From the NCBI GenBank assembly GCA_964559945.1, contig CAZLJY010000001.1:24081-88080 (forward strand): a DNA stretch of 64,000 nucleotides. The letters are read 5' to 3'. The translations under genes were made by a program, and so were the position numbers. This DNA comes from an uncultured Gammaproteobacteria bacterium. GTDB taxonomy: Bacteria > Pseudomonadota > Gammaproteobacteria > Xanthomonadales > SZUA-38. Shown piece after piece: positions 5,633 to 53,814 of the stretch; the stretch's first letter is position 1, and the number at the start of each line of letters is the position of its first letter. Below the pieces are notes generated by a model that had not been told where the DNA came from, made no database searches, and saw nothing but the letters and a program-made list of their open reading frames with translations.

Positions 5633-5881
5633 CGGGTGTCAAATTGTTCGCCAACATGCCAACCTTAGAGGCAGATGGCAATCCACTGAACGACGCCGAT
5701 TTAGAGAAATAACTTTTCAATCCGGTGAGTCGTCAGCGTTTTGGTACGTCACGGATCAGCCGTAAATCTCATCGGATAAATAGTAATTGGCGGGCCTTAG
5801 AGTGATCTTACGGCCTATGACCGAACCCAACCGGCGATTAATCTGGTACCGTCGCCATTCTTCTTGTGGGGAGTTGTTATC

Positions 5882-14469: not shown

Positions 14470-14958
14470 GTTTTGCTATGTCACTAAGTATCGACTGTAG
14501 GGGGCAGAGACATTAGAAACATCGGAAGTTTTTGATTTGTTGAGTCATGAGCCGAGCAAGGACTCTGTCGTTGGTATCCGACTAGAGCCTGGAGCTCAAC
14601 GTGATCTGCGATACCCAGTTGGCACCAAAAGAACCGCAAGCCTTGCCGGTAACGTAGCGTCCTCAGCCGGGTTGACGGACATCACCTCAGGCAATAATCA
14701 GGCCGGAGTTACCACACCAATAATCCTATTTGGCAATGGCTTTGAATGATGGAAACGGGGTAAACCTAACTTGGGCGGGTTGCAAAAGCCTAAAAAACCT
14801 TGGAGATAAACATCTTGCACGGGCATAGCTCCCGGTCTGCACTATTCAGCGGCAGTGGTTGCGCGTTTAGCTGCGGTCGGTAAGGTCAATCTCTAGGGTC
14901 AAGAAAATGGTGCTTTTGAGTCTTCTGATGTTAACTGATGGTTAGGCTTGTCTTTCTC
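14470..14958 (-). pseudogene. decayed C-terminal remnant of a CocE/NonD-family hydrolase paralog
   Basis: The minus-strand conceptual translation aligns with the C-terminus of the 20590-22812 gene but carries frameshifts and in-frame stops. EKDKPNHQLTSEDSKAPFS/LTLEIDLTDRS*TRNHCR aligns with QNDKTTHQLSTEASKAPASLTLEIDFADRNQSRNDYY. IGVVTPA*LLPE aligns with FGVTLYELLPD. LLVPTGYRRSR* aligns with LLVPGALTSVEFRRSRM. An identical 18-mer, gtcaatctctagggtcaa, occurs at 14885-14902 and 21106-21123. Confidence 0.6.
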
Positions 14959-16012
14959 TCAAAGTTTGTGAGGGTGTTTGTCCAAATCTAGCGCGGTAGG
15001 CTGATGCAAACCGGCCGTGATGGGTCACGCCCTGGTCACTGAGAATTCGGGTAACGTTGGAATCTATCGGGGCAGACAGTAGCCGCTGACGAACTCGGTC
15101 TAGTTTAATTTTTTGTGAGTACTGTTTAACGGTTTGTCCAACGTGCCGTCTAAACAACCCTCGTAGTTGGCGCTCTGAGACGCCGACTAGATTGGCTAAC
15201 TCAGCGGTTGATGGCGGGCAAACGAATTTTGCATGCAGTTCTTTAATGGCGGCGTCTAATGGCCGCGGATACTCCCGGCTGCGTGATCTATTGAGTCTTT
15301 CAGAATAATTATGTTGCTGGGTGTGGAGCAACGTCGTGATCAACCAGCGTTCTAGCTGATCTGCGGCCACAGGGTCGCGACGATGCCAGTCGACAAATCG
15401 GCAGTGCTGATAAAGGGCAGAGACAACCGCAAGCCATGGTTGTGCTGATTCAGTGGCAAGGTCAAGGTCAAGCTTAAACACTAAAGGATGGTCTACCTGG
15501 CGTCCCGTTAGGTCTTCCAGTTGGCGTTCTAATGATTTCCTGGAAATCTGTACGGTGAGCACAACGGCATCACTATTCCAGCGCATAAAACTGGGTTCAG
15601 TGGGAGACAGCACAGTGGCGTTTTGATTGCCCGCCCAACAGCGCTGTTGCCCACAGCGTACGTCTAAGGAGCCCGCAGTGGTAATTTGAGCCAGGTAAAA
15701 ATCCGTCAATCGGCCTGGGTCAACTACGGCGTTTGCCCCATACTGGACACTGGAAAATCCGATATTGCCAACCGATGTGCTGGCGATTCGGGTTGCGAGT
15801 TTTCGTTCCTTGGGATCTAGCTGAAATTCGTGAGGGCAAAACAAATTGCTGGCGAAATTCTGAATTTCTTCGTGATCGTTTGATGAGAAAAAATCGAAAC
15901 GATCAGGTCCTTCAGACAACGCCAATGTCATTTCTTTTACGGCCTTGTGGCCGGTCATATCACTGATCACCGTACACGACACTCTAGCCAATTCTGGATC
16001 AAAGTCTGCCAC
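14942..16012 (-). CDS. AraC/XylS-family transcriptional regulator
   Basis: The C-terminus carries a double HTH (TAELANLVGVSERQLRGLFRRHVGQTVKQYSQKIKLDRVRQRLL ... HGRFASAYRARFGQTPSQT). The gene is divergent from the TonB-receptor/ADH genes. Confidence 0.85.
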   Translation of the reverse strand: MADFDPELARVSCTVISDMTGHKAVKEMTLALSEGPDRFDFFSSNDHEEIQNFASNLFCPHEFQLDPKERKLATRIASTSVGNIGFSSVQYGANAVVDPGRLTDFYLAQITTAGSLDVRCGQQRCWAGNQNATVLSPTEPSFMRWNSDAVVLTVQISRKSLERQLEDLTGRQVDHPLVFKLDLDLATESAQPWLAVVSALYQHCRFVDWHRRDPVAADQLERWLITTLLHTQQHNYSERLNRSRSREYPRPLDAAIKELHAKFVCPPSTAELANLVGVSERQLRGLFRRHVGQTVKQYSQKIKLDRVRQRLLSAPIDSNVTRILSDQGVTHHGRFASAYRARFGQTPSQTLRERQA

Positions 16013-20589: not shown

Positions 20590-22812
20590 TCACTCCTGCC
20601 GCATTGGAATATTAAGGTAACTTGCGCTGGATATCTCTAATTGCAGTGGGCTGCCAGCATCGCTGACACTTTCATCTGAGACATCCCCACCGGTTCCGTA
20701 ATTCACCTGGGCGAAGGGGTTAAAGTTTACGTCAACGATTGCCGCCACTCGGCTCCCTGCTCCGATCTTACGGCTGACCATTCGGCTTCGTCTGAATTCA
20801 ACGGAGGTTAAGGCGCCAGGCACCAGCAATTGTCGGCTTTCCCGATCAGCCGCGTAACTCGCACGGCCGAGATAATAGGACAGGTGAAATGCTTGGCCAT
20901 CGGGCAATAACTCATACAACGTTACCCCGAAGTCAAAATCACGTTTGTTGCTGGTGACCACCAAAGCCCCAGAGAATTGCCCGTTGATGGATCTTGCAGA
21001 CTCAAACGCCTTGGAGACAAATATCAGGCCCGGACGTTGCTCCAAATCTCCACTAATGATCGGGAAGGGGTAGTAGTCATTGCGTGATTGATTACGGTCG
21101 GCAAAGTCAATCTCTAGGGTCAATGAAGCGGGCGCTTTTGAAGCCTCCGTGCTTAGCTGATGGGTGGTCTTGTCGTTTTGTGGTGTGAAATACCAACGTT
21201 CGGTTTGTTTGTTCATATCAAACAGTGAATCTGTATGGTGCCATTGGTTGTCCCCCATCCGTTGGTAATTCACCTTGGCTTTGATCAAGGCCGGCTTATC
21301 TGCGCCCTTGAGGACATGATCTAGCCATCGATAAGTGAGGGTCGGTGTGTTGATGGGCGCCACTGGGTCCAACGTGTAACCACGCAAAGTTTGTGGGGAG
21401 ATGGTTTGCGCACCGAAATGATCGTAAGGGCCAATGACCAGATAGTGGGGCGCTTTGGTGTTGTGGCGTAGGTGCTCATTGAAATACTCAAGAGCTGAAA
21501 TCTGACCGTCATCGTAGTAGCCAGTAATGGATAGCACTGGGATGTTGATGCGTTCGTATTCCTTGCCGTAAGGCACCATGGATTGCCAATACTCATCGAA
21601 GGAAGGGTGAGTAAGCCATTTCTGCAGCCACGGGTTTGGGGGTCCTTCGACCGCGTCGACCTGGCGAAACGGCCGGCCGCTAGCAAACAAGTTTTGACGC
21701 AGAGTATTCCAACGTTGCTGGTCGTTGTAGGTATCGTTGTCCAACATCGGGTTGTTAGATACGTAAAAAGGCCAAGCGTAGTTGGCCATCAAAAACACGT
21801 TGTTCTCCATCGGCAGGCCTTGACCGGGCATTGCAGCGGCGGAAGGAACAATGGTTTTTAGGGCGGGGTGTGGATTCTTAAGTGCTGCCCATTGACTGAA
21901 GCCGTTATAGCTGCCGCCGAACATACCGATCTGCCCATCGCTCCAGGGTTGTTGGCTGATCCAGTTGATCACGGTATTGACGTCTATTGCTTCGTTTTCA
22001 TAGGGCGCGATGGGATTTGGGCTTGATCGTTTGCCGCGTGAAAACCCCACCACGCCAACATACCCCTCGGCTGCCGAGCGTATCGCTGTACGCAAATTTC
22101 TCAGCGGTACAGAGCTGGCGTAAATAGTAAACTCGAGGGCGGTGGGTTGTGCTTGGTCAAGGCGTTTGCGTACCACTATTGCGGATAAAACTACCCCATC
22201 TTTACCCTTGATAAGTACTTCATGGTCGATGTGGAATCGTCGCTTCTGATCTTCACGCAGTGCAGCAGTTGAGGATTCGATGGCGCGTTTGTAAGTGGAC
22301 AAATCCACGGCTTGGCGTAACACGCGCATTGCTGCGGAGGGCTCTAGGTCTTTTTTGCCCATCGCCTCATTGATCATCCAATTGAGGTATGACTGTCCCG
22401 ATGTAACATCGTAAGTGGCAAACTCATAGGCGCGCCAAGCATCAAGGTCGCTCAGTGCCGATAAGGATTGGTTCAAGATCCCTTCGACGGATTTGGTTTC
22501 CTTTGCAGCGCGCAACAGGAGCTCGTAATGATAGAAAGTGAAGCGGTTGCTATGGGTTTGTCCCAGCGATGACAGGATAGCCAAGGCTTGCTCGGTGTTG
22601 CCTGCAGCGACGTGCAGGCGCAGTAGGTCTTCGTTGTTATCAACAACCTCATTGGCAAGAAGATGTTCTGCCCAGCCTTTTAGTTGTTTGATGTCATGAT
22701 CCGATGCCAGCCAAGTGTGATAGTCAAACTCTGCTGGTTGGCTTTTGGTGGGTAGCGAGCCGATAGCAATCAGCGTTATGAGTCGAAGAATTGCACTTAG
22801 TGATGGGATCAT
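20590..22812 (-). CDS. CocE/NonD-family serine hydrolase (S15 X-Pro dipeptidyl-peptidase-like), secreted
   Basis: Blocks typical of the family include GVVGFSRGKRSS, IGMFGGSYNGFSQW (nucleophile elbow GxSxxG), PVLSITGYYDD and a C-terminal beta-sandwich. The probable start is the ATG at 22812, giving the signal peptide MIPSLSAILRLITLIAIGSL; the longest ORF extends to 22941. Confidence 0.75.
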   Translation of the reverse strand: MIPSLSAILRLITLIAIGSLPTKSQPAEFDYHTWLASDHDIKQLKGWAEHLLANEVVDNNEDLLRLHVAAGNTEQALAILSSLGQTHSNRFTFYHYELLLRAAKETKSVEGILNQSLSALSDLDAWRAYEFATYDVTSGQSYLNWMINEAMGKKDLEPSAAMRVLRQAVDLSTYKRAIESSTAALREDQKRRFHIDHEVLIKGKDGVVLSAIVVRKRLDQAQPTALEFTIYASSVPLRNLRTAIRSAAEGYVGVVGFSRGKRSSPNPIAPYENEAIDVNTVINWISQQPWSDGQIGMFGGSYNGFSQWAALKNPHPALKTIVPSAAAMPGQGLPMENNVFLMANYAWPFYVSNNPMLDNDTYNDQQRWNTLRQNLFASGRPFRQVDAVEGPPNPWLQKWLTHPSFDEYWQSMVPYGKEYERINIPVLSITGYYDDGQISALEYFNEHLRHNTKAPHYLVIGPYDHFGAQTISPQTLRGYTLDPVAPINTPTLTYRWLDHVLKGADKPALIKAKVNYQRMGDNQWHHTDSLFDMNKQTERWYFTPQNDKTTHQLSTEASKAPASLTLEIDFADRNQSRNDYYPFPIISGDLEQRPGLIFVSKAFESARSINGQFSGALVVTSNKRDFDFGVTLYELLPDGQAFHLSYYLGRASYAADRESRQLLVPGALTSVEFRRSRMVSRKIGAGSRVAAIVDVNFNPFAQVNYGTGGDVSDESVSDAGSPLQLEISSASYLNIPMRQE

Positions 22813-23042
22813 TTCATGTCCTGCCTTAATCCTTACTAGGGTCATTTTTTTCTGGTTAAGCGGTCGAATTTCCGCGTCTAATAGCGCCATGTTGAACCAC
22901 GAATCAACCCTCCTTGAGATTTGCCATTGGAGAAAATCCACTGAACCGAGATGTCGTGGCTCCGTAGGTCAGCGCACTTTGTGATACAGCGCGTTATCAT
23001 TTCAGTGGTGCAGATCGAAGTTTGCAATCTGGTGTTCTGGAA

Positions 23043-23074
23043 GTCGTGATTTGCCCATGATGGTGTCGTGATTT
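23043..23074. promoter_or_regulatory. two perfect direct repeats of GTCGTGATTT spaced 22 bp apart, in the divergent hydrolase/regulator intergenic region
   Basis: The copies lie at 23043-23052 and 23065-23074. A third partial copy, GTCGTGG, is at 22953-22959. The repeats sit about 92 nt upstream of the winged-helix regulator ATG at 23166. Confidence 0.4.
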
Positions 23075-23165
23075 TTTTGTGACTAAGAACAAAAGACTTT
23101 CATAACATGGGCTTGCGATCACCGGGCGGGGCGTTCTACTTACTTTGAATGGATAAACAACAACG

Positions 23166-25175
23166 ATGAATTGGAAAATAGAACAGTTTCATTTCTCGGA
23201 ATCCCGTCGAACCCTGACTGCTGGTAGTCAGGTTGAGGCGCTGGAACCGTTGGTATGTGCTGTTCTGGTCCATCTATGTCGGCATCCCGATGAGGTGGTC
23301 ACTCGAGATGCTTTGGTCGACGCTGTATGGCGGGGCAGAGTGGTGACCGACAATGCGGTCAACCGGGTAATCGTGAAACTGCGCAGTGCTTTCGGCGATG
23401 ATGCCCGAAACCCAAAGTTTATAGTGACCCAATCGAAGACGGGTTATCGCTTGATTGCACCGGTGGAGATCATTAGACCCCATACTTCAGCGGGGTTATC
23501 TACGGCTCGTTACAAGGTTGTGGGAGTTGCACTGGTAATCGCCACGATGATTGGGCTGTCGACCGTGCTTTGGCATCAGTCAACCGGACCAGTGGCTCGC
23601 AGTGCGGCCCCTCTATATAGGGGCGGTAGCGATGAGTATGGCCCGGTGGTCTCGCCGGATGGCCGCACTCTGGCCTATTCGTCCTTTGAGGAAGATCAAC
23701 TTCGCTTGTATCTGCGGGATTTACGCAGCGGCGAAGCCCGGAGGGTCGACTATGACCCTGGTTATAGCGGCGGTCCATCCTGGTCTAGTAACGGCCGCCG
23801 CCTGGTTTATTTGTATACCGAAGCACAGCGCTGCCAATTCAGGGAAATTGCCGTTTCCGGGCTCACTGGCAGTGAACCGAAAACGCTGCACAATTGTCCG
23901 GTGGGAAGCTTTGGCTTGGCTATTTATGGCCATCAGGGCGACAAACTCTACTACTCGGAAGCGCCAGACGGGCGAGAGCCCTATTCTCTATTTGAATTGG
24001 ATATCGAATCCGGTGATCGCCGCCGATTACTTCAGCCCGTGCCGCTGTTGCGTGGCAATACGCAGTTCGACCTTCACCCTTATCGAGATGCATTGTTAAT
24101 TTCCTCGCCTGACCAGCAGCAATGGCTGAACATTTACGAACTGGATTTGGCCAACCAGCAGCTTCAGCGGTTGTTTCGGTTGAACGAATACTCCTGCTGC
24201 GCGATATGGAACCACGATGGGTCGCGAGTCTCTTTACAAAGTGAAAACCCCTATGAACTTGTGAGCTTTGATTTGTCCGGTGCAGATCGTCGGGTTGATT
24301 ACCGAGGAGTGCAGTTGATCGGCGCAACCACTCGCTTTCCCAATGCTGAGGATTACGTATTCATCGGTGCGAGTCACGACGCCGATATTGTTGCGTTCGA
24401 AGATACAGGGTTAACCCCGGCAACGGTGGTTAACTCATCGGTAAACGACCATCTTCCGGCGGTTGATCCCGCTGGTCGGCAGCTGGTTTTTCTGTCTGAC
24501 CGCAGTGGTCAATACGAATTATGGGTTACTGATCTCAACACCGGTAAGGAATCACGGATTGATTCGGGAAACGGCGACTCCTATTACTACGGCATTGGTT
24601 GGGCACCGGACGGTAAACGATTGGCAGCCTTCAACAGTAATGAAATTGACGTGTTCAATTGGCCTGCAGGCAAGGCTCGGAAATTGAGGATTCCGCAGCT
24701 TGAGATCCGAGGAGTATCCTGGAAAGACGCTGAAACCCTAGCCTATAGTGTGAAAGAGAACGATCGTTGGGTGGTGAAACACTACGATATTCACAACGAT
24801 CAGGTATCTGCCGGCCCGGCTAGGTGGGCCTATGTCCAATACGGTGTGAAAGCGGTCGATACCCTGTGGTATGACGCTGATGGTCAGACGTTTTATGGCA
24901 TCGAGCAAACCGCCATCGATGTGTTGGACGATGTTCAACCCCTAATCAGGCGCCGCTTTAACGCCCACCTTGTTGACGGTACTCTGGCTTTTTATATCCA
25001 AGGTAAGGATGGTTGGCGCTTAAAGGTATCTAGGCAGGAGGATGGCCAATGGACCGAAAGTACAGCCCTTGGCTCAACGCCTAATCCTAGTCAGGTTGCC
25101 GTTTCAGGTGGGCGAATATATGTCTCTTGGCTAAGTCAAAGTACCTCGGATGTGTTTCGAACGATCAGAAATTAG
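23166..25175 (+). CDS. membrane-anchored ToxR/CadC-like winged-helix regulator with a periplasmic TolB-like beta-propeller
   Basis: The N-terminal OmpR/PhoB-type DNA-binding domain reads LEPLVCAVLVHLCRHPDEVVTRDALVDAVW...NRVIVKLRSAF...TQSKTGYRLI. There is one TM segment (VVGVALVIATMIGLSTVLW). Propeller motifs include VSPDGRTLAYSS, WSSNGRRLVY, DPAGRQLVFLSDRSGQYELW and WAPDGKRLA. Confidence 0.8.
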   Translation: MNWKIEQFHFSESRRTLTAGSQVEALEPLVCAVLVHLCRHPDEVVTRDALVDAVWRGRVVTDNAVNRVIVKLRSAFGDDARNPKFIVTQSKTGYRLIAPVEIIRPHTSAGLSTARYKVVGVALVIATMIGLSTVLWHQSTGPVARSAAPLYRGGSDEYGPVVSPDGRTLAYSSFEEDQLRLYLRDLRSGEARRVDYDPGYSGGPSWSSNGRRLVYLYTEAQRCQFREIAVSGLTGSEPKTLHNCPVGSFGLAIYGHQGDKLYYSEAPDGREPYSLFELDIESGDRRRLLQPVPLLRGNTQFDLHPYRDALLISSPDQQQWLNIYELDLANQQLQRLFRLNEYSCCAIWNHDGSRVSLQSENPYELVSFDLSGADRRVDYRGVQLIGATTRFPNAEDYVFIGASHDADIVAFEDTGLTPATVVNSSVNDHLPAVDPAGRQLVFLSDRSGQYELWVTDLNTGKESRIDSGNGDSYYYGIGWAPDGKRLAAFNSNEIDVFNWPAGKARKLRIPQLEIRGVSWKDAETLAYSVKENDRWVVKHYDIHNDQVSAGPARWAYVQYGVKAVDTLWYDADGQTFYGIEQTAIDVLDDVQPLIRRRFNAHLVDGTLAFYIQGKDGWRLKVSRQEDGQWTESTALGSTPNPSQVAVSGGRIYVSWLSQSTSDVFRTIRN

Positions 25176-25463
25176 CCAGTTGATTGGCTCAAATATCCGC
25201 TCGTCTAATAGTCGCGATGGAGCGCGAAGAAGGGTTGTCACTGTCGATCCGAACGGACAACGGTTCACCGTTAGGGTCAAAGATACCGGTGCCGCCATTT
25301 AGTCCATCCAGGCCGGCAGGCCAATCCAAACGCCGATGTTGAGAATTTCAGTCTCACCGACCATTAGGTCTGTCGTCGGCAATCCACTCGACTGCCATGT
25401 GGAGAACAATCGAAGGGGGCACTTGCGCATTTCCGCATTCTAAATCGCAATTTTTCAACCATC

Positions 25464-26135
25464 GTGAGGTCCATGGAGAGCCACAATCACAGTGTGGATT
25501 GCCCTATCGAAAGTACCCGCCGAAGGTTGCCTTGCCCGTGGCTCGCGCTATGCCTTGCAATTGCCGCTTGCGCCACGCCGATTAAAGAGCCTGAACCTAG
25601 CGGGTTTTTGACAGACTACTCCAGCCTCCAAGCGGTTTCGGAAAACCATCTGCAAGCACTAAATCCAGCCCTGGCGCACTATCATCAATTTGTGATCGAA
25701 CGCCCCATCGTGCTTTACAAACCGGACGAGGGAGGTGATGAGTTTTCTGCCGATGAACTGGATGAGCTCAAAGATCATATTGTCGGGCAGTTTGCCAGCC
25801 GGCTAGGTAAAGACGAGGTATACCAGGTGGTAGATGAGCCCGGCCCTGACATTGCGCGATTGCGCTTTGTCATTACTGATCTTGACGCAACAGACGGTCT
25901 GTTAAATATCTCCTTCATCACCAAAGCCACCGGCGCTGGCCTAGGCGGCATTGCCATGGAGATGGAGGCCAGCGATTCGATCAGCGGTGAACAGCTACTG
26001 GGCGCTGTTCGATGGGGCACCGGGAGCCGGGTGCTGCGGGCCGGGATTACCCGTCTCGGGGATGCCAAAATTCAGACTAGCCGCTGGGCCCGAGATTTTC
26101 GCCAGCTGCTTGACGAGCTGGCTGAGAAAGGCTGA
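25464..26135 (+). CDS. putative lipoprotein (DUF3313-like)
   Basis: A lipobox is present (LALCLAIAAC), followed by GFLTDYSSL as remembered for the DUF3313 family. The start is either the GTG at 25464 or the ATG at 25473. Confidence 0.5.
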   Translation: MRSMESHNHSVDCPIESTRRRLPCPWLALCLAIAACATPIKEPEPSGFLTDYSSLQAVSENHLQALNPALAHYHQFVIERPIVLYKPDEGGDEFSADELDELKDHIVGQFASRLGKDEVYQVVDEPGPDIARLRFVITDLDATDGLLNISFITKATGAGLGGIAMEMEASDSISGEQLLGAVRWGTGSRVLRAGITRLGDAKIQTSRWARDFRQLLDELAEKG

Positions 26136-26196
26136 GCGATCGCAAAAGCCCTCGCATTCAGCGTGAAATCTTTTGGGGTCCCTAATCCTCGCCGAG

Positions 26197-27681
26197 TTAG
26201 CCACGGTTTGCCTTGATTTTCGCCACCAGAGTTTCAAGCATCTGGTCACGGATAGGTGCAACGATGCTGGATGCAATCACCCAGTCTGGTGTGACCCCGT
26301 CCGACTTTGGTTCGCCGGATGGCCTGATGATGTGTGCTTTAGGAAAACCTACCGTGAAGCCAGTATTGGGCAATGAAAATTGCTCCATAGCGCCGTAGGT
26401 GGTGGCCATATCCGAAGTCTTTTCGCCAACGATTAGACCGAGTTTGTAGTCTTGAACGATGGCCGCTACATTCACTGCGTTGGAATAGCTATGGCGATTG
26501 ATCAGCACAAAGACCTCTCCCGTAAATTGTTTTCCCTCTCGGGGTTTCGAGTAGGGGATCTCAAAATCAAATACCTCGCCGCGGGGCACTTTGTCGTACT
26601 GTTTTGCAAACAGTGCCGAGACCGACTCTGCGGCGCCAGGGTTTTGTTTGAGTCGGGCTAAATTGGACGCGGCGGCTTCATCGCTGGAGCGGATCAGAAA
26701 GGCGGAGCAAAAACGAAAGGGCCTATTGGCAATCCAAGCCAACATAGGGTCGCTGAAGGAGTTGTCGCCGCCCGGGTTCGCCCGCAGATCGATAATCAGT
26801 TGCTTGGCGTTTTGTTCTATAAGTTGCTCAAACGATTGGTCAACGAAGGCCACGAATGCCGTGTTGTTCCATGGTTGGTCGGGTTGCTCGGAGTTATAAA
26901 AAGGACCGGGGCGCAAGTAGCCGATGTTTTGGTCCAGCATTCGAAATTCTCGGTCGGTGCTGCTCAGAGAAAAGCGTTTGTCTAGGGCAGCTGCCGCTTT
27001 GCGCTGTGCTTTGCGAGACGAAGCATCAATGGTGATTTCAACGATTTGATCACCACGGCGCAACTTGAGAAGAAATTGTTCTACCTCCCCAACAACGGCC
27101 CAAAGGTCTCTAGGGAACGTAAATTCCATTAATGAGTGAGCAATATAGGGTGAGTCGGCCGAGATGTGTTCCGCAACTCGGTTCAGCCAGTCGGCCACGG
27201 CTATGCCATTGATGGCCACGATTTCATCACCGCCGCGAATGCGAGGGTCACCGCTATAGTTCTCACCGACGTAAGCGGCGCCATTCACAATTCGAGGGTA
27301 GATCGGAAAGGTCCGTCCGCCGGCGTCACGAAACACCTCATAGGCCTGGTCGGGAAAATCGATTCGGGCGTGGGCCACCTTGCCAAAGGCCACAAATCTC
27401 TGAAAGGTGAGTTGGGCCTCAAAACGGCTCACGGGCTGGTTAAACGATTCCATCATTTGCCTAAAACGATCGTCGTAGGCTTGCTGACTGCGGTGCACAA
27501 ACAGGTCGGCATGGGCGCTTTTGAGGCCGCTGTACAGTGAAGCAAAATCCTCCTTGAGAGTGGTCGGAGGGATGAGCTCCTGCCAGGAGTCGGCACCCCT
27601 CGGGTGAGTCAGGTCTTGGGCGGATACCGACAGTACAAAGGCCCAGAGCAGTAGGGCGATCATGCGGGTACGTTGGCGCAT
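26197..27681 (-). CDS. S41-family (tail-specific/C-terminal processing type) peptidase, secreted
   Basis: A signal peptide is present (MIALLLWAFVLSVSAQD), together with a PDZ-like region (GDEIVAINGIAV) and the S41 core LIIDLRANPGGDNSF plus VLINRHSYSNA. Confidence 0.8.
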   Translation of the reverse strand: MRQRTRMIALLLWAFVLSVSAQDLTHPRGADSWQELIPPTTLKEDFASLYSGLKSAHADLFVHRSQQAYDDRFRQMMESFNQPVSRFEAQLTFQRFVAFGKVAHARIDFPDQAYEVFRDAGGRTFPIYPRIVNGAAYVGENYSGDPRIRGGDEIVAINGIAVADWLNRVAEHISADSPYIAHSLMEFTFPRDLWAVVGEVEQFLLKLRRGDQIVEITIDASSRKAQRKAAAALDKRFSLSSTDREFRMLDQNIGYLRPGPFYNSEQPDQPWNNTAFVAFVDQSFEQLIEQNAKQLIIDLRANPGGDNSFSDPMLAWIANRPFRFCSAFLIRSSDEAAASNLARLKQNPGAAESVSALFAKQYDKVPRGEVFDFEIPYSKPREGKQFTGEVFVLINRHSYSNAVNVAAIVQDYKLGLIVGEKTSDMATTYGAMEQFSLPNTGFTVGFPKAHIIRPSGEPKSDGVTPDWVIASSIVAPIRDQMLETLVAKIKANRG

Positions 27682-27759
27682 ATCTCAGTCCTTATTTTTG
27701 GATGCGGCCAGTAAATACTGTTGTTGGGCGTTAGATCCATGTCGGCAAGTTCTTTTTTT

Positions 27760-27776
27760 CCTGACCAAACCCTGAC
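27760..27776. promoter_or_regulatory. direct repeat CCTGAC-N5-CCTGAC (11-bp phasing) in the divergent S41/regulator intergenic region
   Basis: The sequence is cctgaccaaaccctgac, located 37 nt upstream of the regulator ATG (27813) and 79 nt upstream of the peptidase ATG (27681). Confidence 0.3.
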
Positions 27777-27812
27777 GCGAGGTAAATCAGCGGCTTATGC
27801 GATAATAACCTG

Positions 27813-29081
27813 ATGAGTCAGGAGGCCGAAAACACCGCATCAGTGGAACAATCCCGACTGGCATCGTTTATGCTCGGTCCTTGGAACGTGGACCCCGGAA
27901 CCGGCGTAATGGTGAGCGGTGATGAGCATAGGACCCTAGAACCAAAGCTCATGGAATTGTTGGTGTTTTTTGCTGCTAAGCCTCTCCAGGTTTTTACCCG
28001 AACTGAAATTGAAGGGGCGTTGTGGGCGGATCTTGTTGTTGGGGAGGACACGGTAGCTCGAGCGGTCTCCCGGTTGCGTAAGGCCCTGGGCGATTCCGCA
28101 CAGTCGTCGCGTTTCATTGAGACGCTGCCTAAACGGGGTTACCGCCTCATCGCGCCGGTGTCCGAACCTTATTCCCAGGCCCAACCCATACGCCAGCGCG
28201 TGGGTTGGCGTGTACCGCTGGCTCTATTGGTTGCCGCAGCGTTAGCGACGTCAGTCTGGCTCAGGTTGCCTCAACATACTGCACCCAATGTCGACGCCAA
28301 TGCCGATTCGTCCAGCCAGATAGTGGCGCGGGCTGATGACCTTTACATGCGGTTTACCCGCAGTGAAAACGAAGCGGCTATTGGTCTTTATGAGCAGGTG
28401 CTTGGACAACACCCCGACCACACGGATGCCCAAGCCGGCCTTGCCAATGCGCTGGTGCAGCGTGTGGTGCGCTGGCCTAGGCAGGCAGGGCAACATCGCC
28501 AGGGCGTCAGCTCGTTGCACGAAGCACTGGACAGTGGTCTGACTCAAGGCCCAGAAGCGGAGGCCGTTTTGGGTCGCGCTGTTGCCCTGGCCGAGCGTGC
28601 TGTTCGTATGGCGCCTGAAGATCCCCAAGCATTAAAAGCGCTCGCCTTTGCGACTACTGCCCAGGGAGACATTCAGGGTGCTGAAGTGCTATATCGAAAG
28701 GTGATTTCCCTAAACCCCAACGCCTGGGCCGCGCATATTAATTTGGGGGAAATTGCCACCATGGGTGACCAGCCAGCTCAGGCCATAGAACAGTTCGAGA
28801 TGGCTTGGGCCGCCATGACGCGGGCCTATGACTATGAACCTCAGCGGGTTGGGCCCTGGCAGGTGGCACTGGGCGTTGTCATTGGGGAACGCTATGAGCA
28901 ACTAGGCCAACCGGTTGACGCTGAGTTGTGGTATCGACGGGTGCTAGCCAAAGCACCTTATGAGCCGGAAGCTACGGTCAAGCTTGCTCAACTTTTAGCA
29001 AACAGTGGTGAACCCTTGGAGGCAAAGGCGTTATGCCGGGCGTTGACTGATCGCGTGGGTGACTATCCGGGATGCCAGTAG
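27813..29081 (+). CDS. membrane-anchored ToxR/CadC-like winged-helix regulator with periplasmic TPR repeats
   Basis: The N-terminal winged-helix domain reads LEPKLMELLVFFAAKPLQVFTRTEIEGALW...ARAVSRLRKALGD...LPKRGYRLI. There is one TM segment (VPLALLVAAALATSVWL). The C-terminus carries TPR-like repeats (AIGLYEQVLGQHPDHTDAQAGLA..., AEVLYRKVISLNPNAWAAHINLG...). Confidence 0.8.
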   Translation: MSQEAENTASVEQSRLASFMLGPWNVDPGTGVMVSGDEHRTLEPKLMELLVFFAAKPLQVFTRTEIEGALWADLVVGEDTVARAVSRLRKALGDSAQSSRFIETLPKRGYRLIAPVSEPYSQAQPIRQRVGWRVPLALLVAAALATSVWLRLPQHTAPNVDANADSSSQIVARADDLYMRFTRSENEAAIGLYEQVLGQHPDHTDAQAGLANALVQRVVRWPRQAGQHRQGVSSLHEALDSGLTQGPEAEAVLGRAVALAERAVRMAPEDPQALKALAFATTAQGDIQGAEVLYRKVISLNPNAWAAHINLGEIATMGDQPAQAIEQFEMAWAAMTRAYDYEPQRVGPWQVALGVVIGERYEQLGQPVDAELWYRRVLAKAPYEPEATVKLAQLLANSGEPLEAKALCRALTDRVGDYPGCQ

Positions 29082-32471: not shown

Positions 32472-32553
32472 AATTGGGGTCAGACAACTTTCTCGAAAAA
32501 GTGTGGTGCCCGATTGCTGATTGTGTAGCCCGAAAAGTTGTCTGACCCCAATT
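32472..32553. repeat. 82-bp inverted-repeat element (21-bp perfect arms, 40-nt spacer) at the left edge of the AT-rich island
   Basis: aattggggtcagacaactttc (32472-32492) pairs with gaaagttgtctgaccccaatt (32533-32553). It is preceded by a half-copy, attggggtcc (32461-32470). Confidence 0.7.
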
Positions 32554-32815
32554 CCGTAGGGAGGTACAGGACACGGACGGCGGTTGATTCGGTGCCCGAC
32601 TGAAAGTAACAACAAGACAATGTTCACGAACTAATTCTTGGGCTAGCAAAGGCTTTCCGAAAGCAGGCTGACACGCAAAAACGACCCACTGGGTCAGCGA
32701 ATGACGATACATCCATATTGTTTGAGGTTGTTTCCAGATACTTGAAATTACTTTGACTCTGCTTGGCAAGCACCTAGCTACGCTTCCTGGCTCTAGTTTT
32801 AATCAGACTATCGAA

Positions 32816-33073
32816 CTAGGCCGCAGGCTTCCGCTCCAATATTGCCACCATGTACTCGCTTACAATTTTGGCTATCTTGTATGCCAACAATGGCGGCACT
32901 GCATTTCCTACCTGATTGTGACGCTTTGACGGCTCGTGGTGCCGCTTGCCGCTCACCAGAAGGTCATGAAAAGTTGAGGAAAGAGTGCCTGGTATCGCTT
33001 CAGTATTTTCTAATGGCTCGGAATGGGTATCGCCAGTTGTCAAATTTGTCACCTTGACGGATTTTTCTAGCAT
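32816..33073 (-). pseudogene. C-terminal remnant of a DNA (cytosine-5) methyltransferase
   Basis: The 85-aa ORF ends with the C5-MTase motif X context QVGNAVPPLLAYKIAKIV. No N-terminal catalytic motifs (PCQ, ENV) lie upstream, because the AbiEii gene ends 63 nt away. Confidence 0.5.
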
Positions 33074-33136
33074 TTTTGTTTGAGCAGCCGTAAACCAAAG
33101 GCCTAGCAGTCAATTAGCTTCCAAGATCGACGCCTA

Positions 33137-34003
33137 TTACCAAGGTAGTTGCTCGTAAAATGTTTTTGCTGTGTCATACACGTCCTCGAATTCAGGCAAT
33201 TCACCTTCTATTTCGTTTTGAAGGGTGTGGTATTCAGCCCTTGATCTTTGGCGAATCTCTGGGTCCTGTAAGGATTCAGAGTTTGCTTCGATTCCTCGCG
33301 ATGCTGCCTTTTTCATCAAGCTGGTTTTGATTTTTTTTCGTTCCAACTTGGTTGTTTCTGGTAGTTTTTTAATGAGAAGAAATAGATCGTAGACGTCTTG
33401 GCGTCGTTGCCTGTTTCTCGCTTTTTGTTGTAAGACTGCCCGGTATTTTTCTGCAAACAGGTCAGCTAATGAATAGACCCTGATTGTTTCTCCTTCGGTA
33501 ATAGCAAAATTTTCTGTATTCAGCATGAGTTCGTTCATGCTGAAATCTATGTCGAGCGTTGTAGGGCTTTTACCATCAAGTAGCCGTTTATGTTTCGGCT
33601 CATATTTATAAGCGTAGCCTATTTTCATTTTTATCGATGGGAATTTTGCATTCGGGTTTTTTGATGGTTGTACTTTACAACTTTGTACTCTGCATTCGAG
33701 GTCATAGCCCAAATTCTCTGCGACTATTGCCATGCTTTGATTTAACTTTCTTTGGATCTCATCTTTATCATTTTGAGCAAGAGATTGGTTTGTCGAGAAA
33801 TCTATGTCGGTTGTGTGCCGATGGGTTCTGTATTTTATCGCGAGGAGTACTCCCCCTTTCATTACCATTGAAGATTGTAGGTCGGCGTCATTGGAGATTC
33901 CCGACAGAGCAATATGAACAGCTTCCCTAAATTCTCTTTGCCCTTTTGATGGGGATTCGGTTATCCAATCGATTATCCCGCCCTCATTGAAAAAACCCGA
34001 CAT
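33137..34003 (-). CDS. abiEii: AbiEii/AbiGii-family nucleotidyltransferase toxin (type IV TA, DUF1814)
   Basis: The NTase motif reads MKGGVLLAIKYRTHRHTTDIDF (GG-x14-DxD). The C-terminal motif reads EKYRAVLQQKARNRQRRQDVYDL. The protein is 288 aa, and its gene starts 12 nt downstream of the partner gene. Confidence 0.75.
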   Translation of the reverse strand: MSGFFNEGGIIDWITESPSKGQREFREAVHIALSGISNDADLQSSMVMKGGVLLAIKYRTHRHTTDIDFSTNQSLAQNDKDEIQRKLNQSMAIVAENLGYDLECRVQSCKVQPSKNPNAKFPSIKMKIGYAYKYEPKHKRLLDGKSPTTLDIDFSMNELMLNTENFAITEGETIRVYSLADLFAEKYRAVLQQKARNRQRRQDVYDLFLLIKKLPETTKLERKKIKTSLMKKAASRGIEANSESLQDPEIRQRSRAEYHTLQNEIEGELPEFEDVYDTAKTFYEQLPW

Positions 34004-34015
34004 CGATAGATTTCC

Positions 34016-34933
34016 CTATCCCAAATTTCCAACGTTGATCGAGAGTTTCCACTTGTCTGAGAACTCTGGTAGGTATTCGCCACTTGGATCTAGTTTTCTA
34101 GACCCACCGCGCTGAGCGTATGAAACCCAGTCATGGAAGCAAGGGCTATCCAAGCCAAGCAGCTCTTCCAGTAAGTAACCTGCCCTAACTTTATCTATTT
34201 GACTGCCGTGACTAGTTACTTCGTCAGTAATCAATCTTTGGTACTTTTCAGCGTATTCTGAGAAAACTTCGAGAACATGAGCCATACCTCCACATAGGTC
34301 TGGGGCCTTAAGCATATCTAGGAAAGTTCTTCCAACAGTTGATACTCGAAGAGTCATCTTCTGCACATTCCTGTATGCCCCGAGATGAATGCTGTTTTGC
34401 CTGTGTACCACTGTCTTCCCGATTTTTTCCATTTTTATTTTTGCCAATCGTGGCAGGCCATTACTCAAGTAGATATCAAGATCTTCTCCTAGGTCCTTTT
34501 TCATTCGCTCTAGTGCGAATTCTTTCCATAGGTTCTTGCCGGGGGAGGAAATGAATAATTTACCAGGAATACGATTTGTTAGACCGTGGTAATCCATAGC
34601 GCTTAGGTGAGATACGTAGCAAAATGGATCTACTGAGCATGCGATTTCGCTGGGCTGAGCGTCCTTTCTCCCGAGGATACTGAATACATATTTTGTTGCT
34701 AATCCCCTGTAATGGTTAAGAATGCCTTCATCCAGCATTGAGTTTTGGATCTTTGATAGCTCTCGACTGCTTGCGAATTCTTTTGTAATGGACGCAATTG
34801 GTTCTCGTCCAATCGACTTTTTTCGATACAGTCGATGCAGAGCTAGTGCAAGTTGGTAGTTCGTAATAACAGGTTGATTCAACTCCGTTATCTTTTTGGC
34901 AACTGCTTTTTTGAGTTTCATCACGATACTCAT
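34016..34933 (-). CDS. abiEi: AbiEi-family antitoxin / transcriptional autoregulator (type IV TA)
   Basis: The gene lies immediately upstream of abiEii. The block CYVSHLSAMDYHGLTNRIPGKLFISSP is typical of AbiEi. The start is ambiguous: the ATG at 34933 has an AGGA 8 nt upstream, and the alternatives are the ATG at 34921, the ATG at 34960 and the TTG at 34972. Confidence 0.7.
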   Translation of the reverse strand: MSIVMKLKKAVAKKITELNQPVITNYQLALALHRLYRKKSIGREPIASITKEFASSRELSKIQNSMLDEGILNHYRGLATKYVFSILGRKDAQPSEIACSVDPFCYVSHLSAMDYHGLTNRIPGKLFISSPGKNLWKEFALERMKKDLGEDLDIYLSNGLPRLAKIKMEKIGKTVVHRQNSIHLGAYRNVQKMTLRVSTVGRTFLDMLKAPDLCGGMAHVLEVFSEYAEKYQRLITDEVTSHGSQIDKVRAGYLLEELLGLDSPCFHDWVSYAQRGGSRKLDPSGEYLPEFSDKWKLSINVGNLG

Positions 34934-34968
34934 GCTATACGTCCTTAGGACGTATAGCATGAGTATCG
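34924..34968. promoter_or_regulatory. 45-bp near-perfect palindrome (22-bp arms, core CGTCCTTAGGACG) overlapping the abiEi translation start region
   Basis: cgatactcatgctatacgtcct (34924-34945), then t, then aggacgtatagcatgagtatcg (34947-34968). Every arm position pairs. Confidence 0.8.
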
Positions 34969-35009
34969 ACAAATATCAAAAATGTCAGAGCGAATTTGGG
35001 CTAGATCTA

Positions 35010-35038
35010 CTTATATCCGGCTATATTTTTCTATACAA
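35010..35038 (-). promoter_or_regulatory. putative sigma70-type promoter of abiEi-abiEii
   Basis: On the minus strand, TTGTAT (35038-35033) and TATAAG (35015-35010) are separated by a 17-nt spacer. The promoter lies between the two palindromes. Confidence 0.45.
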
Positions 35039-35049
35039 AGGCGTTGTAT

Positions 35050-35088
35050 TTGGCTATCCTTGCGTCCTTAGGACGCAAGGATAGCCAA
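35050..35088. promoter_or_regulatory. 39-bp palindrome (19-bp arms) with the same CGTCCTTAGGACG core, just upstream of the putative -35
   Basis: ttggctatccttgcgtcct (35050-35068), then t, then aggacgcaaggatagccaa (35070-35088). Confidence 0.8.
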
Positions 35089-35104
35089 TTCTATAATTTT
35101 CATT

Positions 35105-35169
35105 TTGTAGATTGAATAGACAATCCGTCTATCGGTACTGCCAACTGAGCCTCGCTGGTAGAATCAGAG
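35105..35169 (-). other. degenerate tRNA-Lys-like relic plus a copy of the tRNA 5'-flank
   Basis: ccaactgagc (35141-35150) equals 38286-38295 in the tRNA D-arm region. cctcgctgg (35150-35158) equals 38335-38343 in the tRNA upstream flank. ttgtagattgaa resembles the T-arm gtgtaggattcgaa, and actgc is also shared. All blocks occur in the same order and orientation. Confidence 0.45.
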
Positions 35170-35235
35170 TGTAATCCCTCCGGAAATTAATCGTCGCTCG
35201 AAGTAGAGTTTTCCATTGACAGGAGATTCTACGAA

Positions 35236-35502
35236 ATGAAGAAAGGACGATTTAAGGAAAGCCTGATATTTCAGGTGCTCAAAGAAGCCGAAGCCGGCGT
35301 CCCGGTGCCAGAGCTCTGCCGCACCCATGGCATGAGCACCGCCAGCTTTTATAAGTGGCGCGCCAAATACGGCGGAATGGACGTTTCCAGCATGAAGCGG
35401 ATGAAGGAGCTCGAGGAAGAAAACGCTCGGCTGAAAAAGATGTATGCCGAGGAAAAGCTCAAAGCTCAGATCGTAAGGGAAGCTCTTGAAAAAAAGTGGT
35501 GA
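35236..35502 (+). CDS. IS3-family transposase OrfA (HTH)
   Basis: [49 protein letters not shown] is followed by a leucine-zipper-like tail ([19 protein letters not shown]). Confidence 0.9.
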
Positions 35503-35528
35503 CGCCATCTCGACGCAAAGAGATGGCG
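35490..35528 (+). promoter_or_regulatory. programmed -1 ribosomal frameshift signal (slippery heptamer plus stem-loop)
   Basis: A AAA AAG lies in the orfA zero frame at 35490-35496. After a 6-nt spacer there is a 9-bp stem (cgccatctc at 35503-35511 pairing with gagatggcg at 35520-35528). Confidence 0.8.
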
Positions 35529-36323
35529 CAAAAAGCCGTGAATGACAGAGCGGTGACTATCCGATTGACCTGTCTGGCCTTTGGTATTTCTGAGACGTGC
35601 TATCGCTATCAGGCAAAGCTCAGCGATGACAATGCACTGATTGCCGATTGGTTGTTGCGAATCACGACGGCAAACCGCCGTTGGGGATTTGGCTTGTGTT
35701 TTTGCTTCCTGAGAAACGTGAAAGGTTTTGGTTTTAATCACAAGCGCGTCTATCGCATTTATCGTGAGCTGGAACTGAACCTTCGGATCAAGCCGCGTCG
35801 CCGGATCAAACGGAATAAACCTGATTCATTGGACGTTCCTCGTCAGATCAACCAGACCTGGTCCATCGATTTTATGCACGATCGTTTGGCTGATGGTCGA
35901 GCATTTAGAACGTTCAACGTGCTGGACGACTACAACCGAGAAGGCCTGGGCATTGAAGTTGATCTGAGTCTGCCAGGAGCACGCATCACAATGGCGCTGG
36001 ATCAGATCATCGAATGGCGAGGAGAACCTAGAGTCATCCGATCAGACAATGGCAGTGAAATGCTCAGCGCTGAATACCAGACGTGGGCCGAAAACCGAGG
36101 CATCAAACTACTGTTCATCCAGCCCGGAAAGCCCACTCAAAATGCTTATGTGGAGCGATATAGCCGAACGGTTCGACACGAATGGTTGGATGAGCATCTG
36201 TTCGAATCCATCGATCATGCGCAGCAAACGGCGACGCAGTGGTTGTGGCGTTGCAATAACGAACGGCCCAATACGGCCATTGGAGGAATAACTCCGATCC
36301 AAAAGCTTGCGTTAGCAGCTTAA
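35496..36323 (+). CDS. IS3-family transposase OrfB (DDE/RNase-H-like catalytic domain), expressed as an OrfAB fusion by -1 frameshift
   Basis: The catalytic region contains [14 protein letters not shown] and [14 protein letters not shown]. The -1 frame relative to orfA is continuous from the slippery site. Confidence 0.9.
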
Positions 36324-36362
36324 TAGCTACTTCCAGCAGCGGTTAAAAATGGGGGGATTACA

Positions 36363-36853
36363 GACCCTCATGTGCAAATGAGTCTCAGACTTCAACAGGC
36401 GTTTGGGCTCAGGCGCGAAGAAGCCATCAAGTTTATTCCGACCCTGGCGGACAAGGGCACAGAGGTCTATCTGAAGCCCACTTGGACCAAAGGTAGCAAA
36501 GAGCGATTAATCCCTATTCGTACGACCCAGCAAAAAGAACTGCTGAGTGAAGCCAAGCGTCTGGCCGGAAAAGGCTCGTTGATTCCGTCCCACCGTAAAT
36601 ACATCCACCAACTTCGAATCTATGAGCGGCGACCGCAAACGCTGGCCTGTCCAAGATGCATGGGCTGAGGCATGCCTATGCGCAGAAACGCTACTTCGAA
36701 CTCACTGGTTGGGAGTGCCCTGCAAATGGTGGACCCAAGAAGTCCCAAATGGCTGAAAACCTTCGTTACATAGATACGCTAGCGCGGCAAGAGATCAGTC
36801 AGGAGTTGGGCCATACGCGACTACCGATTACCGACGTCTATCTGGGCTCTTGA
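36363..36853 (+). pseudogene. tyrosine recombinase (Integrase_1-like) remnant, 5'-truncated by the IS and frameshifted
   Basis: The frame is open from the IS junction (DPHVQMSLRLQQAFGLRREEAIKF...). A 1-nt frame break near 36625-36632 separates ...IHQLRIYE from ...NAGLSKMHGLRHAYAQKRY. The C-terminus LGHTRLPITDVYLG carries the catalytic Tyr context. Confidence 0.7.
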
Positions 36854-37236
36854 TGATTATCGCAGCGGCCGGGCAAGGCGAACCAGACAGTAAAGCTGAG
36901 CGACTTGAAACCATTGGCGTCCAGCAGGTCGCTGAACTCTTGCGGTGCTGTCCAGAAACTGTCAAACGCGCAGCGCGAAAAGGTGACCTCCCCGGTCGCC
37001 GAGTTGGCCGCTCGTGGGTCTTTGTTCGCGCAGACGTCATCAACTTCGTGCGGGGGTATACTAATCCCGAGCGGTCGCCGCACCTACCCAATAGGAGACT
37101 GCATTCATGCAAATCTACCAACGTGGAAAAAGCGGCATCTGGTGGGTTCGGTTCACAACGCCGAACCACCAAAGAGTACGCGTCAGCTCTGGGACTGCCG
37201 ACAAAAAAGCGGCCCAAGAATTCGCCGACAGACTAA
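36850..37236 (+). CDS. excisionase-family helix-turn-helix protein (HTH_17-like); ends uncertain
   Basis: The segment IGVQQVAELLRCCPETVKRAARKGDLPGRRVGRSWVFVRADVINFV matches the excisionase/MerR-like HTH pattern. As read, the ORF overlaps the integrase gene by 130 nt. Confidence 0.55.
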   Translation: MMIIAAAGQGEPDSKAERLETIGVQQVAELLRCCPETVKRAARKGDLPGRRVGRSWVFVRADVINFVRGYTNPERSPHLPNRRLHSCKSTNVEKAASGGFGSQRRTTKEYASALGLPTKKRPKNSPTD

Positions 37237-38213: not shown

Positions 38214-38228
38214 AATATCGAGGAAAAA

Positions 38229-38304
38229 TGGTGGGCCGTGTAGGATTCGAACCTACGACCAATGGATTAAAAGTCCACTGCTCTACCAACTGAGCTAACG
38301 GCCC
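38229..38304 (-). tRNA. tRNA-Lys: tRNA-Lys (anticodon UUU)
   Basis: The reverse complement is GGGCCGTTAGCTCAGTTGGTAGAGCAGTGGACTTTTAATCCATTGGTCGTAGGTTCGAATCCTACACGGCCCACCA. It has a 7-bp acceptor stem, a GCTC/GAGC D stem, the anticodon loop CTTTTAA, a GTAGG/CCTAC T stem and an encoded CCA. Confidence 0.95.
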
Positions 38305-53701: not shown

Positions 53702-53814
53702 CAAAGATTCACGGTAAAATGGCCCTTTGAACCGGTTTTTGCCGTAAAATCGGTGTCTCTTTTTAGCTGTTGCAGGCTAATCGTCGGCGCCAGGGGGCCC
53801 GCAAAGCACTGACT

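Follow-up and report, generated by a model that had tools for sequence, protein, structure and literature searches.

Two probable mobile modules of a ToxR/CadC-type regulator and a divergent exported serine hydrolase in an uncultured gammaproteobacterium

Why should a membrane-bound transcription regulator and a secreted serine hydrolase be encoded back to back, and why should this arrangement occur twice within 8.5 kb of one chromosome? The question is raised by a stretch of 64,000 nucleotides from an uncultured Gammaproteobacteria bacterium (Xanthomonadales, SZUA-38; assembly GCA_964559945.1, contig CAZLJY010000001.1, positions 24,081 to 88,080), the whole of which is called the window here. 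An earlier sequence-only reading had noticed two divergent gene pairs, each consisting of a hydrolase or peptidase gene on the minus strand and a gene for a ToxR/CadC-like regulator on the plus strand, and had proposed that these regulators sense peptides or proteins in the periplasm and control their cognate peptidases. In this study, we examined the domains, predicted structures and intergenic repeats of both pairs and compared them with related loci of other genomes. It is reasonably likely that the region represents two horizontally mobile two-gene modules, in each of which a ToxR/CadC-type regulator would control the divergent gene of an exported serine hydrolase.

Profile matches from Pfam and NCBIfam recovered all five open reading frames (ORFs) of the region at the positions described before, and the domain calls held. 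In unit 1, a CocE/NonD-type hydrolase of family S15 (20590-22812, minus strand; Peptidase_S15 and PepX_C domains, TIGR00976) is divergent from a regulator that joins a winged helix-turn-helix (wHTH) domain, a transmembrane segment and a double propeller (23166-25175, plus strand; Trans_reg_C and PD40 repeats), with a candidate operator of four phased direct repeats between them (23043-23084, plus strand). In unit 2, an S41 peptidase (26197-27681, minus strand; Peptidase_S41) is divergent from a regulator whose wHTH domain and transmembrane segment are followed by tetratricopeptide repeats (TPR) (27813-29081, plus strand; Trans_reg_C and TPR), and a second candidate operator occupies 27737-27776 (plus strand). 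Read from the sequence, the N-termini of both hydrolases resemble signal peptides, and one hydrophobic segment is found C-terminal to the wHTH domain in each regulator.

The sequence-only reading had made its model depend on conservation of the pairing in other genomes, and such conservation was found for both units. For unit 1, a profile scan of species-representative genomes yielded 78 loci, 76 of which were testable as two were cut by a contig end. These loci come from Alteromonadales, Colwelliaceae, Pseudoalteromonas, Paraglaciecola, Kangiellaceae, Rheinheimera, Marinicella and Alcanivoracaceae, as well as from Undibacterium (Betaproteobacteria) and Kordiimonas (Alphaproteobacteria). A CocE gene (38-71% identity) lies directly upstream of the regulator gene on the opposite strand in 69 of the 76. 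Unbiased clustering of the ORFs from all 78 loci gave two shared families only, the regulator (78 loci) and CocE (69 loci, always on the opposite strand); the next family was present in 13 loci and all others in seven or fewer, and CocE homologs occurred in the divergent-neighbor position only. In a Xanthomonadaceae-like metagenome-assembled genome (MAG), Kordiimonas and Marinicella, for instance, the regulator 1 ortholog is divergent from a gene encoding an S15 plus PepX_C protein of 740-760 amino acids across a spacer of 136-176 bp, and all other neighbors differ. The pairing in unit 1 is far beyond chance.

The families of unit 2 are large. The best 120 clusters of regulator 2 relatives show 42-62% identity, and the relatives include Woeseiaceae-like gammaproteobacterial MAGs and the Alphaproteobacteria Hyphococcus, Caulobacter, Temperatibacter, Algimonas and Marinicaulis. 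The S41 subfamily is just as large, and by hand comparison 29 of its best 120 clusters share contigs with the best 120 regulator 2 clusters. An S41 gene was divergent from the regulator 2 ortholog in all 11 further loci from Gamma- and Alphaproteobacteria, which comprised six independent genomes, two metagenomic relatives and three loci reached from the S41 side. The S41 genes of the six independent genomes encode 482-500 amino acids, and no other neighbor is common to these loci. The three S41 members, picked because their contigs matched no listed regulator contig, all have a divergent neighbor with Trans_reg_C and TPR domains. As unit 2 was found both from the regulator side and from the S41 side, the association holds in both directions. 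A metagenome scan with the regulator 2 profile relied on peptide patterns generic to CadC-like wHTH domains, and 78 of its 80 loci matched the DNA-binding domain only. In a small sample with no proper control, hydrolases made up about 8 of the 31 divergent neighbors of such generic CadC-like regulators, a suggestion that the theme may be wider.

Are the two units then parts of one system? Among the genomes examined, their side-by-side placement was found in the window only: unit 2 and DUF3313 genes are absent from all of the unit 1 loci, and the converse is also true for the unit 2 loci. We therefore rejected a functional meaning of this adjacency; the juxtaposition is incidental, and the locus comparison indicates that unit 1 and unit 2 are two independent modules. 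The lipoprotein gene reported between them is indeed present (25464-26135, plus strand; DUF3313, lipobox LAIAAC). Its membership in either unit was rejected, as it is missing from every related locus.

If a regulator and its divergent hydrolase form a regulator-target pair, the DNA between them should be informative. The unit 1 spacer holds the direct repeats R1 GTCGTGATTT, R2 CATGATGG, R3 GTCGTGATTT and R4 TTGTGACTA, with a half-site (G/A)TGAY and with TGA at 23047, 23058, 23069 and 23080, that is, at an exact period of 11 bp. Some 90 bp to the left of R1, an outlying TGTCGTGG copy is located at 22952-22959. Direct repeats in phase are what OmpR/PhoB-type wHTH domains classically bind. The loci were searched with a strict triple pattern ([AG]TGA[CT]-N5-7, three times) and with a relaxed chain of TGAY. 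In the 64-kb window, the strict pattern has a single match, at 23046; 52 of 77 loci carry it upstream of the regulator gene with the orientation unchanged, and there are just two matches when both strands of the other 968 kb are counted. One array in the window and two stray arrays in 968 kb make a local regulon likely. With the relaxed chain, at least two phased repeats were detected in 73 of 77 loci and four repeats in 39 of them. The hexamer GTCGTG, used in an exact search, was recovered from a minority of loci only and was superseded by these phased patterns.

Fifty-five loci gave the four-repeat consensus GTcGTGAtaa...gGTGATTTtTtaTGACTTTTnaTGACCaa-N11-taTGnTAnTTT, in which the R4 consensus aTGACC lies exactly 17 bp upstream of an extended -10 element (TGnTAnTTT) and the 5' untranslated region is about 25 nt. 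In the window, R4 is likewise 17 bp upstream of the -10-like TAACAT (23103-23108). R4 is thus the predicted -35 box of the regulator promoter. On the other side, the distance from R1 to the CocE start codon has a median of 70 bp across unit 1 loci; tentatively, a promoter would fit there only with its -35 region directly next to R1. One bound array might then span both divergent promoters. The unit 1 array is likely the operator of the adjacent regulator.

The spacer of unit 2 carries CCATGTC (27737-27743) and then CCTGACCAAACCCTGAC (27760-27776), with TG dinucleotides at 27740, 27762 and 27773 and hence spacings of 22 and 11 bp. The motif CCTGAC-N5-CCTGAC, together with a phased CCATGWC, is kept in orthologous spacers of Gamma- and Alphaproteobacteria that are otherwise unalignable. 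Exact CTGAC-N6-CTGAC occurs once per locus in eight unit 2 loci, at the same place and in the same orientation, with no other match there and none in 995 kb of unit 1 loci. The sole other occurrence in the window, at 9383 on the minus strand, is inside an acyl-CoA dehydrogenase gene (9169-10968) and is probably a chance match. These repeats, too, are likely to be the operator of the adjacent regulator. The wHTH domains of regulators 1 and 2 share 36-40% identity, and their half-sites (TGAY and CTGAC) are related. Given the conserved pairing and the conserved repeats shared by the two genes, each sensor very probably switches its own peptidase gene, and the cognate-peptidase interpretation is supported as far as sequence analysis reaches.

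On the other hand, several observations weigh against this interpretation. The CocE promoter could not be confidently placed, with a weak TAAA patch 21-26 bp left of R1 as the only trace, and the promoters of unit 2 could not be resolved. A simple scan for sigma-70 promoters and terminators found no promoter in either spacer, with fewer sites than in shuffled sequence. Among unit 1 loci, 25 of 77 fail the strict pattern and match the relaxed one only, and at 320-353 bp the unit 1 spacer of the window (22813-23165) has about twice the length seen elsewhere (about 130-190 bp). The invariant periplasmic cysteines of the regulators described below and the precedents of ToxR and TcpP may leave room for redox or proteolytic control. 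Moreover, the repeats point toward the regulator gene and R4 overlaps its -35 box, which fits autoregulation best. The repeats could accordingly autoregulate the regulator only, the real targets being elsewhere and the hydrolase a passenger by shared inheritance. Such an explanation has a very slight chance of being correct. The adjacency outlasts transfers among Alpha-, Beta- and Gammaproteobacteria while every other neighbor changes, and where the partner has been swapped it is again a secreted serine hydrolase with the same spacing; neither the 64-kb window nor about 1 Mb of flanking sequence yielded a second operator array. It is very unlikely that the hydrolase gene is purely a hitch-hiker.

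The swapped partners come from the unit 1 loci that lack CocE. In six of these seven loci (L010, L048, L052, L053, L069 and L085), the divergent neighbor is a beta-lactamase-fold serine hydrolase (PF00144) of about 504-521 amino acids, or 369 in L085. It is followed by a DJ-1/PfpI protein in L048, where this was checked, and an S9 prolyl-oligopeptidase lies further along in L069. The operator is retained in five of the six, all but the distant L085, and L052 and L069 have the same four-repeat array with the last repeat at -59. Both kinds of pair are present in Thalassotalea castellviae (L048, with PF00144, and L080). In a neighbor-joining tree of the unit 1 regulators, the PF00144-paired cases arise at no fewer than two separate places within the S15-paired radiation, and the copies from Beta- and Alphaproteobacteria branch within those from Gammaproteobacteria. 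The latter topology implies that the unit 1 pair moves horizontally as a unit, and the partner swap with a retained operator implies that the regulator-plus-operator core can exchange its hydrolase. The swapped partners point to a cassette of regulator and operator that would drive whichever hydrolase gene lies opposite.

A more far-reaching version of this idea is rather unlikely in our judgment: a portable core of regulator and four-repeat operator might repeatedly capture secreted hydrolases (S15, beta-lactamase-fold and S41 enzymes similar to the chlamydial protease CPAF), and the captured enzyme might be part of sensing itself, either because it generates or removes the ligand that a protease-derived substrate-capture domain detects or because it cuts the sensor. 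In more distant relatives, such capture possibly extends to aspartyl, trypsin-PDZ and TAP-like enzymes.

What kind of regulator is involved, and what could it sense? Both proteins have the structure of transmembrane transcription regulators (TTRs): a Trans_reg_C wHTH domain (PF00486 above the gathering score, E 4.3e-14 in regulator 1 and 1.4e-14 in regulator 2), one predicted transmembrane helix, and no Response_reg or HisKA domain in Pfam. They are not orthologs of CadC proper (NF007540): the scores of 63.6 and 75.9 bits stay far below the cutoff of 400, and the wHTH region alone is matched. The hydrophobic segment of regulator 2 is VPLALLVAAALATSVWL (about residues 133-152), with an Arg-rich flank on its N-terminal side.

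The AlphaFold2 model of regulator 1 (pLDDT, a per-residue measure of model confidence, 87.7) consists of a wHTH domain (residues 1-103), a disordered linker, a helix (117-137) and an all-beta region (145-668). A Foldseek search with this model matched tandem double-propeller proteins, with the tricorn protease 1k32 at rank 2. The tricorn-like S41/propeller protease that had been described in the window was confirmed at 5864-9148, and hhalign aligned residues 146-545 of regulator 1 with its N-terminal double propeller (probability 97.7, E 1.7e-12, 376 columns). The earlier view that these sensors resemble the substrate-capture domains of proteases is borne out by this alignment. Together, the Foldseek and hhalign matches argue for a tricorn-type substrate-channel module and not for TolB, whose model TIGR02800 reached 84.9 bits against a cutoff of 343; the label of a TolB-like propeller given to 23166-25175 should thus be replaced. 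According to the model and the profile alignment, the sensor (145-668) is a periplasmic tandem double propeller of the tricorn type, homologous to the propellers of tricorn proteases.

The regulator 1 family is full-length and well defined, with 32-61% identity. Cys223, Cys244 and the vicinal pair Cys344-Cys345 are invariant across 21 of its members (alignment A1), and Cys408 and Cys421 near the C-terminus are invariant in regulator 2 (alignment A2). Because vicinal disulfides are rare, C344-C345 could mark a ligand or redox site. Distant regulator 1 homologs of about 1040 amino acids (P0095 and P0102) were also seen, in which Pkinase, Trans_reg_C and a PD40 propeller are fused.

The hydrolase of unit 1 belongs to the CocE/NonD family of S15 enzymes both by its family model (TIGR00976 CocE_NonD, 175.3 bits against a cutoff of 66.3) and by a triad with a GxSYxG nucleophile motif; PF02129 and PF08530 both match. 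In an alignment with Rhodococcus CocE, its Ser (GGSYNG), Asp (GYYDD) and His (GPYDH) fall on the triad positions S117, D259 and H287. The triad appears intact, and an active enzyme is predicted. The closest solved relatives include alpha-amino-acid ester hydrolases. The ORF reaches 22941, and 22845 and 22941 are other possible starts. An N-terminal extension of about 200 amino acids (residues 1-200; 22213-22812, minus strand) has no Pfam match and is conserved in part among the regulator-paired orthologs. A search of a plasmid collection with this CocE gave just two homologs, both from a Variovorax outgroup; they have neither the extension nor a regulator and stand beside an SbmA/BacA-type ABC transporter (e.g. 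L176). As for the relic of a second CocE paralog claimed for the window, three short high-scoring segment pairs in different frames were found at 14793-15006 on the minus strand, covering about 70 amino acids of the C-terminal domain (query residues 526-603) and overlapping the 3' end of an AraC-family ORF (14942-16012). With a summed E of 6e-5, the signal of this remnant is weak.

The hydrolase of unit 2 is a member of family S41 (PF03572, 70.4 bits against a cutoff of 24). Ser400, which is invariant in 29 members of the subfamily, lies within the stretch that aligns to the SASASE motif of CtpA, and Ser400 and Asp411 correspond to the nucleophile and Asp positions of Prc. The invariant residues are S400, D411, H57, H104, H397, E420, D424, E433 and K448 (alignments A3 and A5). 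The Prc/CtpA type of C-terminal processing (CTP) protease (TIGR00225) was considered and rejected, with 37.3 bits against a cutoff of 218.6 and no Lys of the GKG type; the stretch following GEKT reads SDMATTYGAME, and the Lys position of Prc is not conserved. The closest folds to the AlphaFold2 model (pLDDT 90) are 4GHN, an S41 protein of Bacteroides, and CPAF of Chlamydia (TM-score about 0.6-0.73), compared with 0.3-0.4 for Prc, CtpA and CtpB, although sequence identity to the nearest folds is only about 15-16%. In the 29-member alignment, the invariant His57 and His104 of the N-terminal domain and Ser400, Glu420 and Glu433 of the core are compatible with a Ser-His-Glu arrangement. From fold and sequence, this enzyme is best described as CPAF-like and not as a classic tail-specific protease. 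It is probably an active enzyme, and its catalytic base may be a His. CPAF is a secreted virulence protease and, unlike the S41 of unit 2, has no adjacent TTR.

How could such modules work? The periplasmic sensor (the double propeller of unit 1, the TPR solenoid of unit 2) would bind either a substrate, in the form of a peptide or protein, or a hydrolase product. Ligand binding would promote oligomerization of the membrane-tethered wHTH domains on the repeats, and the oligomers would induce the hydrolase gene and place the regulator gene under autoregulation. The hydrolase would then consume the inducer, which would close a feedback loop. The architecture of the modules, their conservation and mobility, the repeat arrays and the overlap of R4 with the -35 box are seen in the sequences themselves. 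That the regulators bind the repeats, that they activate rather than repress, and that the ligand is a peptide or protein are points that we infer.

Alternatively, the hydrolase may be a partner of the regulator at the protein level, either as a dedicated site-1 protease that cleaves the sensor and thereby sets off intramembrane proteolysis or as a protease docked on the TPR or propeller domain as on an adaptor. The pair would then be a proteolytic switch, and co-transcription would only match stoichiometry. There are precedents for a link between an S41 protease and a ToxR-like regulator or a TPR protein in Tsp-TcpP, NlpI-Prc and LbcA-CtpA: Tsp is the site-1 protease of the ToxR-like TcpP, DegS and DegP cleave ToxR according to the redox state of its periplasmic cysteines, with reduced ToxR being cleaved (PMC6598108), and LbcA and NlpI are TPR lipoproteins that act as activating, directly bound partners of S41 proteases (PMC8764530, PMC11021448). 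The structures 5wql and 8sxe are among the S41 fold matches, both regulator families have invariant periplasmic cysteines, and the strict bidirectional pairing is as expected for interacting proteins. We nevertheless hold this explanation to be unlikely. Tsp, Prc and CtpA are Ser-Lys proteases encoded away from their partners, whereas the S41 of unit 2 is CPAF-like and encoded divergently beside its regulator; its lack of the Prc Lys and its low CTP score (37 bits against a cutoff of 218) make the analogy with NlpI-Prc and LbcA-CtpA weak. The S15 and beta-lactamase-fold partners are of exopeptidase or esterase type and unlikely to be site-1 proteases, and a partner swap with retention of the operator is easier under transcriptional coupling. 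Transcriptional control and a protein-level partnership are compatible, and both could hold.

If control of the hydrolase gene by its regulator is accepted, the nature of the signal can still be disputed. It might be of an envelope or antibiotic type, for example a stem peptide of peptidoglycan, a peptide with D-amino acids or a compound resembling beta-lactams, and the hydrolases might serve defense or recycling rather than nutrition. In its favor, the alternative partners have the PF00144 fold of beta-lactamases and DD-peptidases, and the solved S15 relatives include alpha-amino-acid ester hydrolases, enzymes that act on beta-lactam side chains. CTP-type S41 proteases control cell-wall hydrolases, and PD40/TolB-type propellers belong to envelope systems. 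However, no peptidoglycan or resistance gene is conserved near the unit 1 loci, most carriers are marine heterotrophs with a wealth of secreted peptidases, and the window encodes a TonB receptor and polysaccharide-degrading genes besides the tricorn-like protease. The peptide transporter next to the CocE of the Variovorax outgroup also argues for peptides, and on this evidence we consider a signal of the envelope or antibiotic type quite unlikely.

Compared with known ToxR/CadC-like TTRs (ToxR, TcpP, CadC, PsaE and VtrA), regulators 1 and 2 are alike in the cytoplasmic wHTH domain, the single transmembrane helix, the periplasmic sensor and the absence of a phosphorelay. Phased repeats near promoters are bound by known TTRs, whose periplasmic cysteines are conserved as well; here the conserved phased repeats of the adjacent spacers lend indirect support to such binding, and both regulator families have invariant periplasmic cysteines. 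Regulators 1 and 2 differ in that the periplasmic domains of ToxR and CadC are small, whereas those found here are a tricorn-type double propeller of about 520 amino acids and a TPR solenoid, and in that the dedicated neighbor here is a divergent gene for a secreted serine hydrolase. A co-component gene of the ToxS, TcpH, VtrC or PsaF kind was not found downstream of either regulator: among the 78 unit 1 loci, each downstream family is present in 7 at most, and the downstream genes of the unit 2 loci all differ. A census has shown that TTRs are widespread, and it makes no mention of TPR or propeller sensors or of peptidase neighbors (PMC10269533).

Promoters of the PhoB/OmpR type also contain direct repeats with an 11-bp period beside or in place of the -35 hexamer, as R4 of unit 1 does. 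The present arrays differ from them in three respects: their regulator is tethered to the membrane and lacks a receiver domain, they are placed between two divergent genes, and their half-site is (G/A)TGAY or CCTGAC and not a pho box. Tricorn protease 1k32 and the tricorn-like S41 protein of the window share homologous tandem propellers with the sensor of regulator 1. A PDZ domain and an S41 catalytic domain are absent from regulator 1, where the propellers are instead fused to a transmembrane helix and a DNA-binding domain.

The rest of the window looks like the ordinary chromosome of a marine-type proteobacterium, and its nearest relatives are uncultured marine Gammaproteobacteria. A probable genomic island of low GC content (32500-38304; 0.446-0.458) is associated with a tRNA-Lys gene; it contains an AbiEii/AbiEi toxin-antitoxin pair (33137-34972, minus strand), an rve-domain transposase of an insertion sequence (35496-36323) and, directly next to tRNA-Lys(ttt) (38229-38304), a tyrosine integrase (37107-38213). 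Further along are a Ser/Thr protein kinase of 936 amino acids with C-terminal TPR repeats (53770-56580, plus strand) and an ORF of 1450 amino acids that fuses three glycosyltransferase domains, GT1, GT2 and GT1 (56606-60958, minus strand). No known RNA element of Rfam was detected at E <= 0.1 in the part of the window from 20 to 30 kb. In other genomes, M16 and M28/M20 peptidase genes are located near some of the modules (L001/L008, 12095-14824; L173, 5593-7248; L170, 9444-11036), and this proximity is not conserved.

The sequence-only reading knew of no characterized system of this type. Our full-text literature search, whose coverage left out most subscription journals, found no account of the pairing either. 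The regulator class and the logic of a local regulator divergent from its target are known, and a regulator beside its own target would not astonish a specialist. What appears to be new are the sensor types, the dedicated class of targets and a defined candidate operator.

The signals and targets of almost all of the widespread ToxR-like regulators are unknown, and the present analysis gives two large subfamilies, together with a third in which the partner has been swapped, a predicted target, operator and sensor type. If control of a cognate hydrolase is true, it would show how marine heterotrophs (Colwellia, Pseudoalteromonas, Alteromonas, Paraglaciecola, Woeseia-like and Caulobacterales-type organisms) tune individual periplasmic peptidases to the supply of their substrates, and the compact cassette of regulator, operator and promoter could serve as a biosensor. 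If repeated capture of hydrolases by a portable core were also true, these modules would represent an as yet undescribed class of extracytoplasmic circuits for the sensing of substrates, widespread among Proteobacteria of the sea and the soil.

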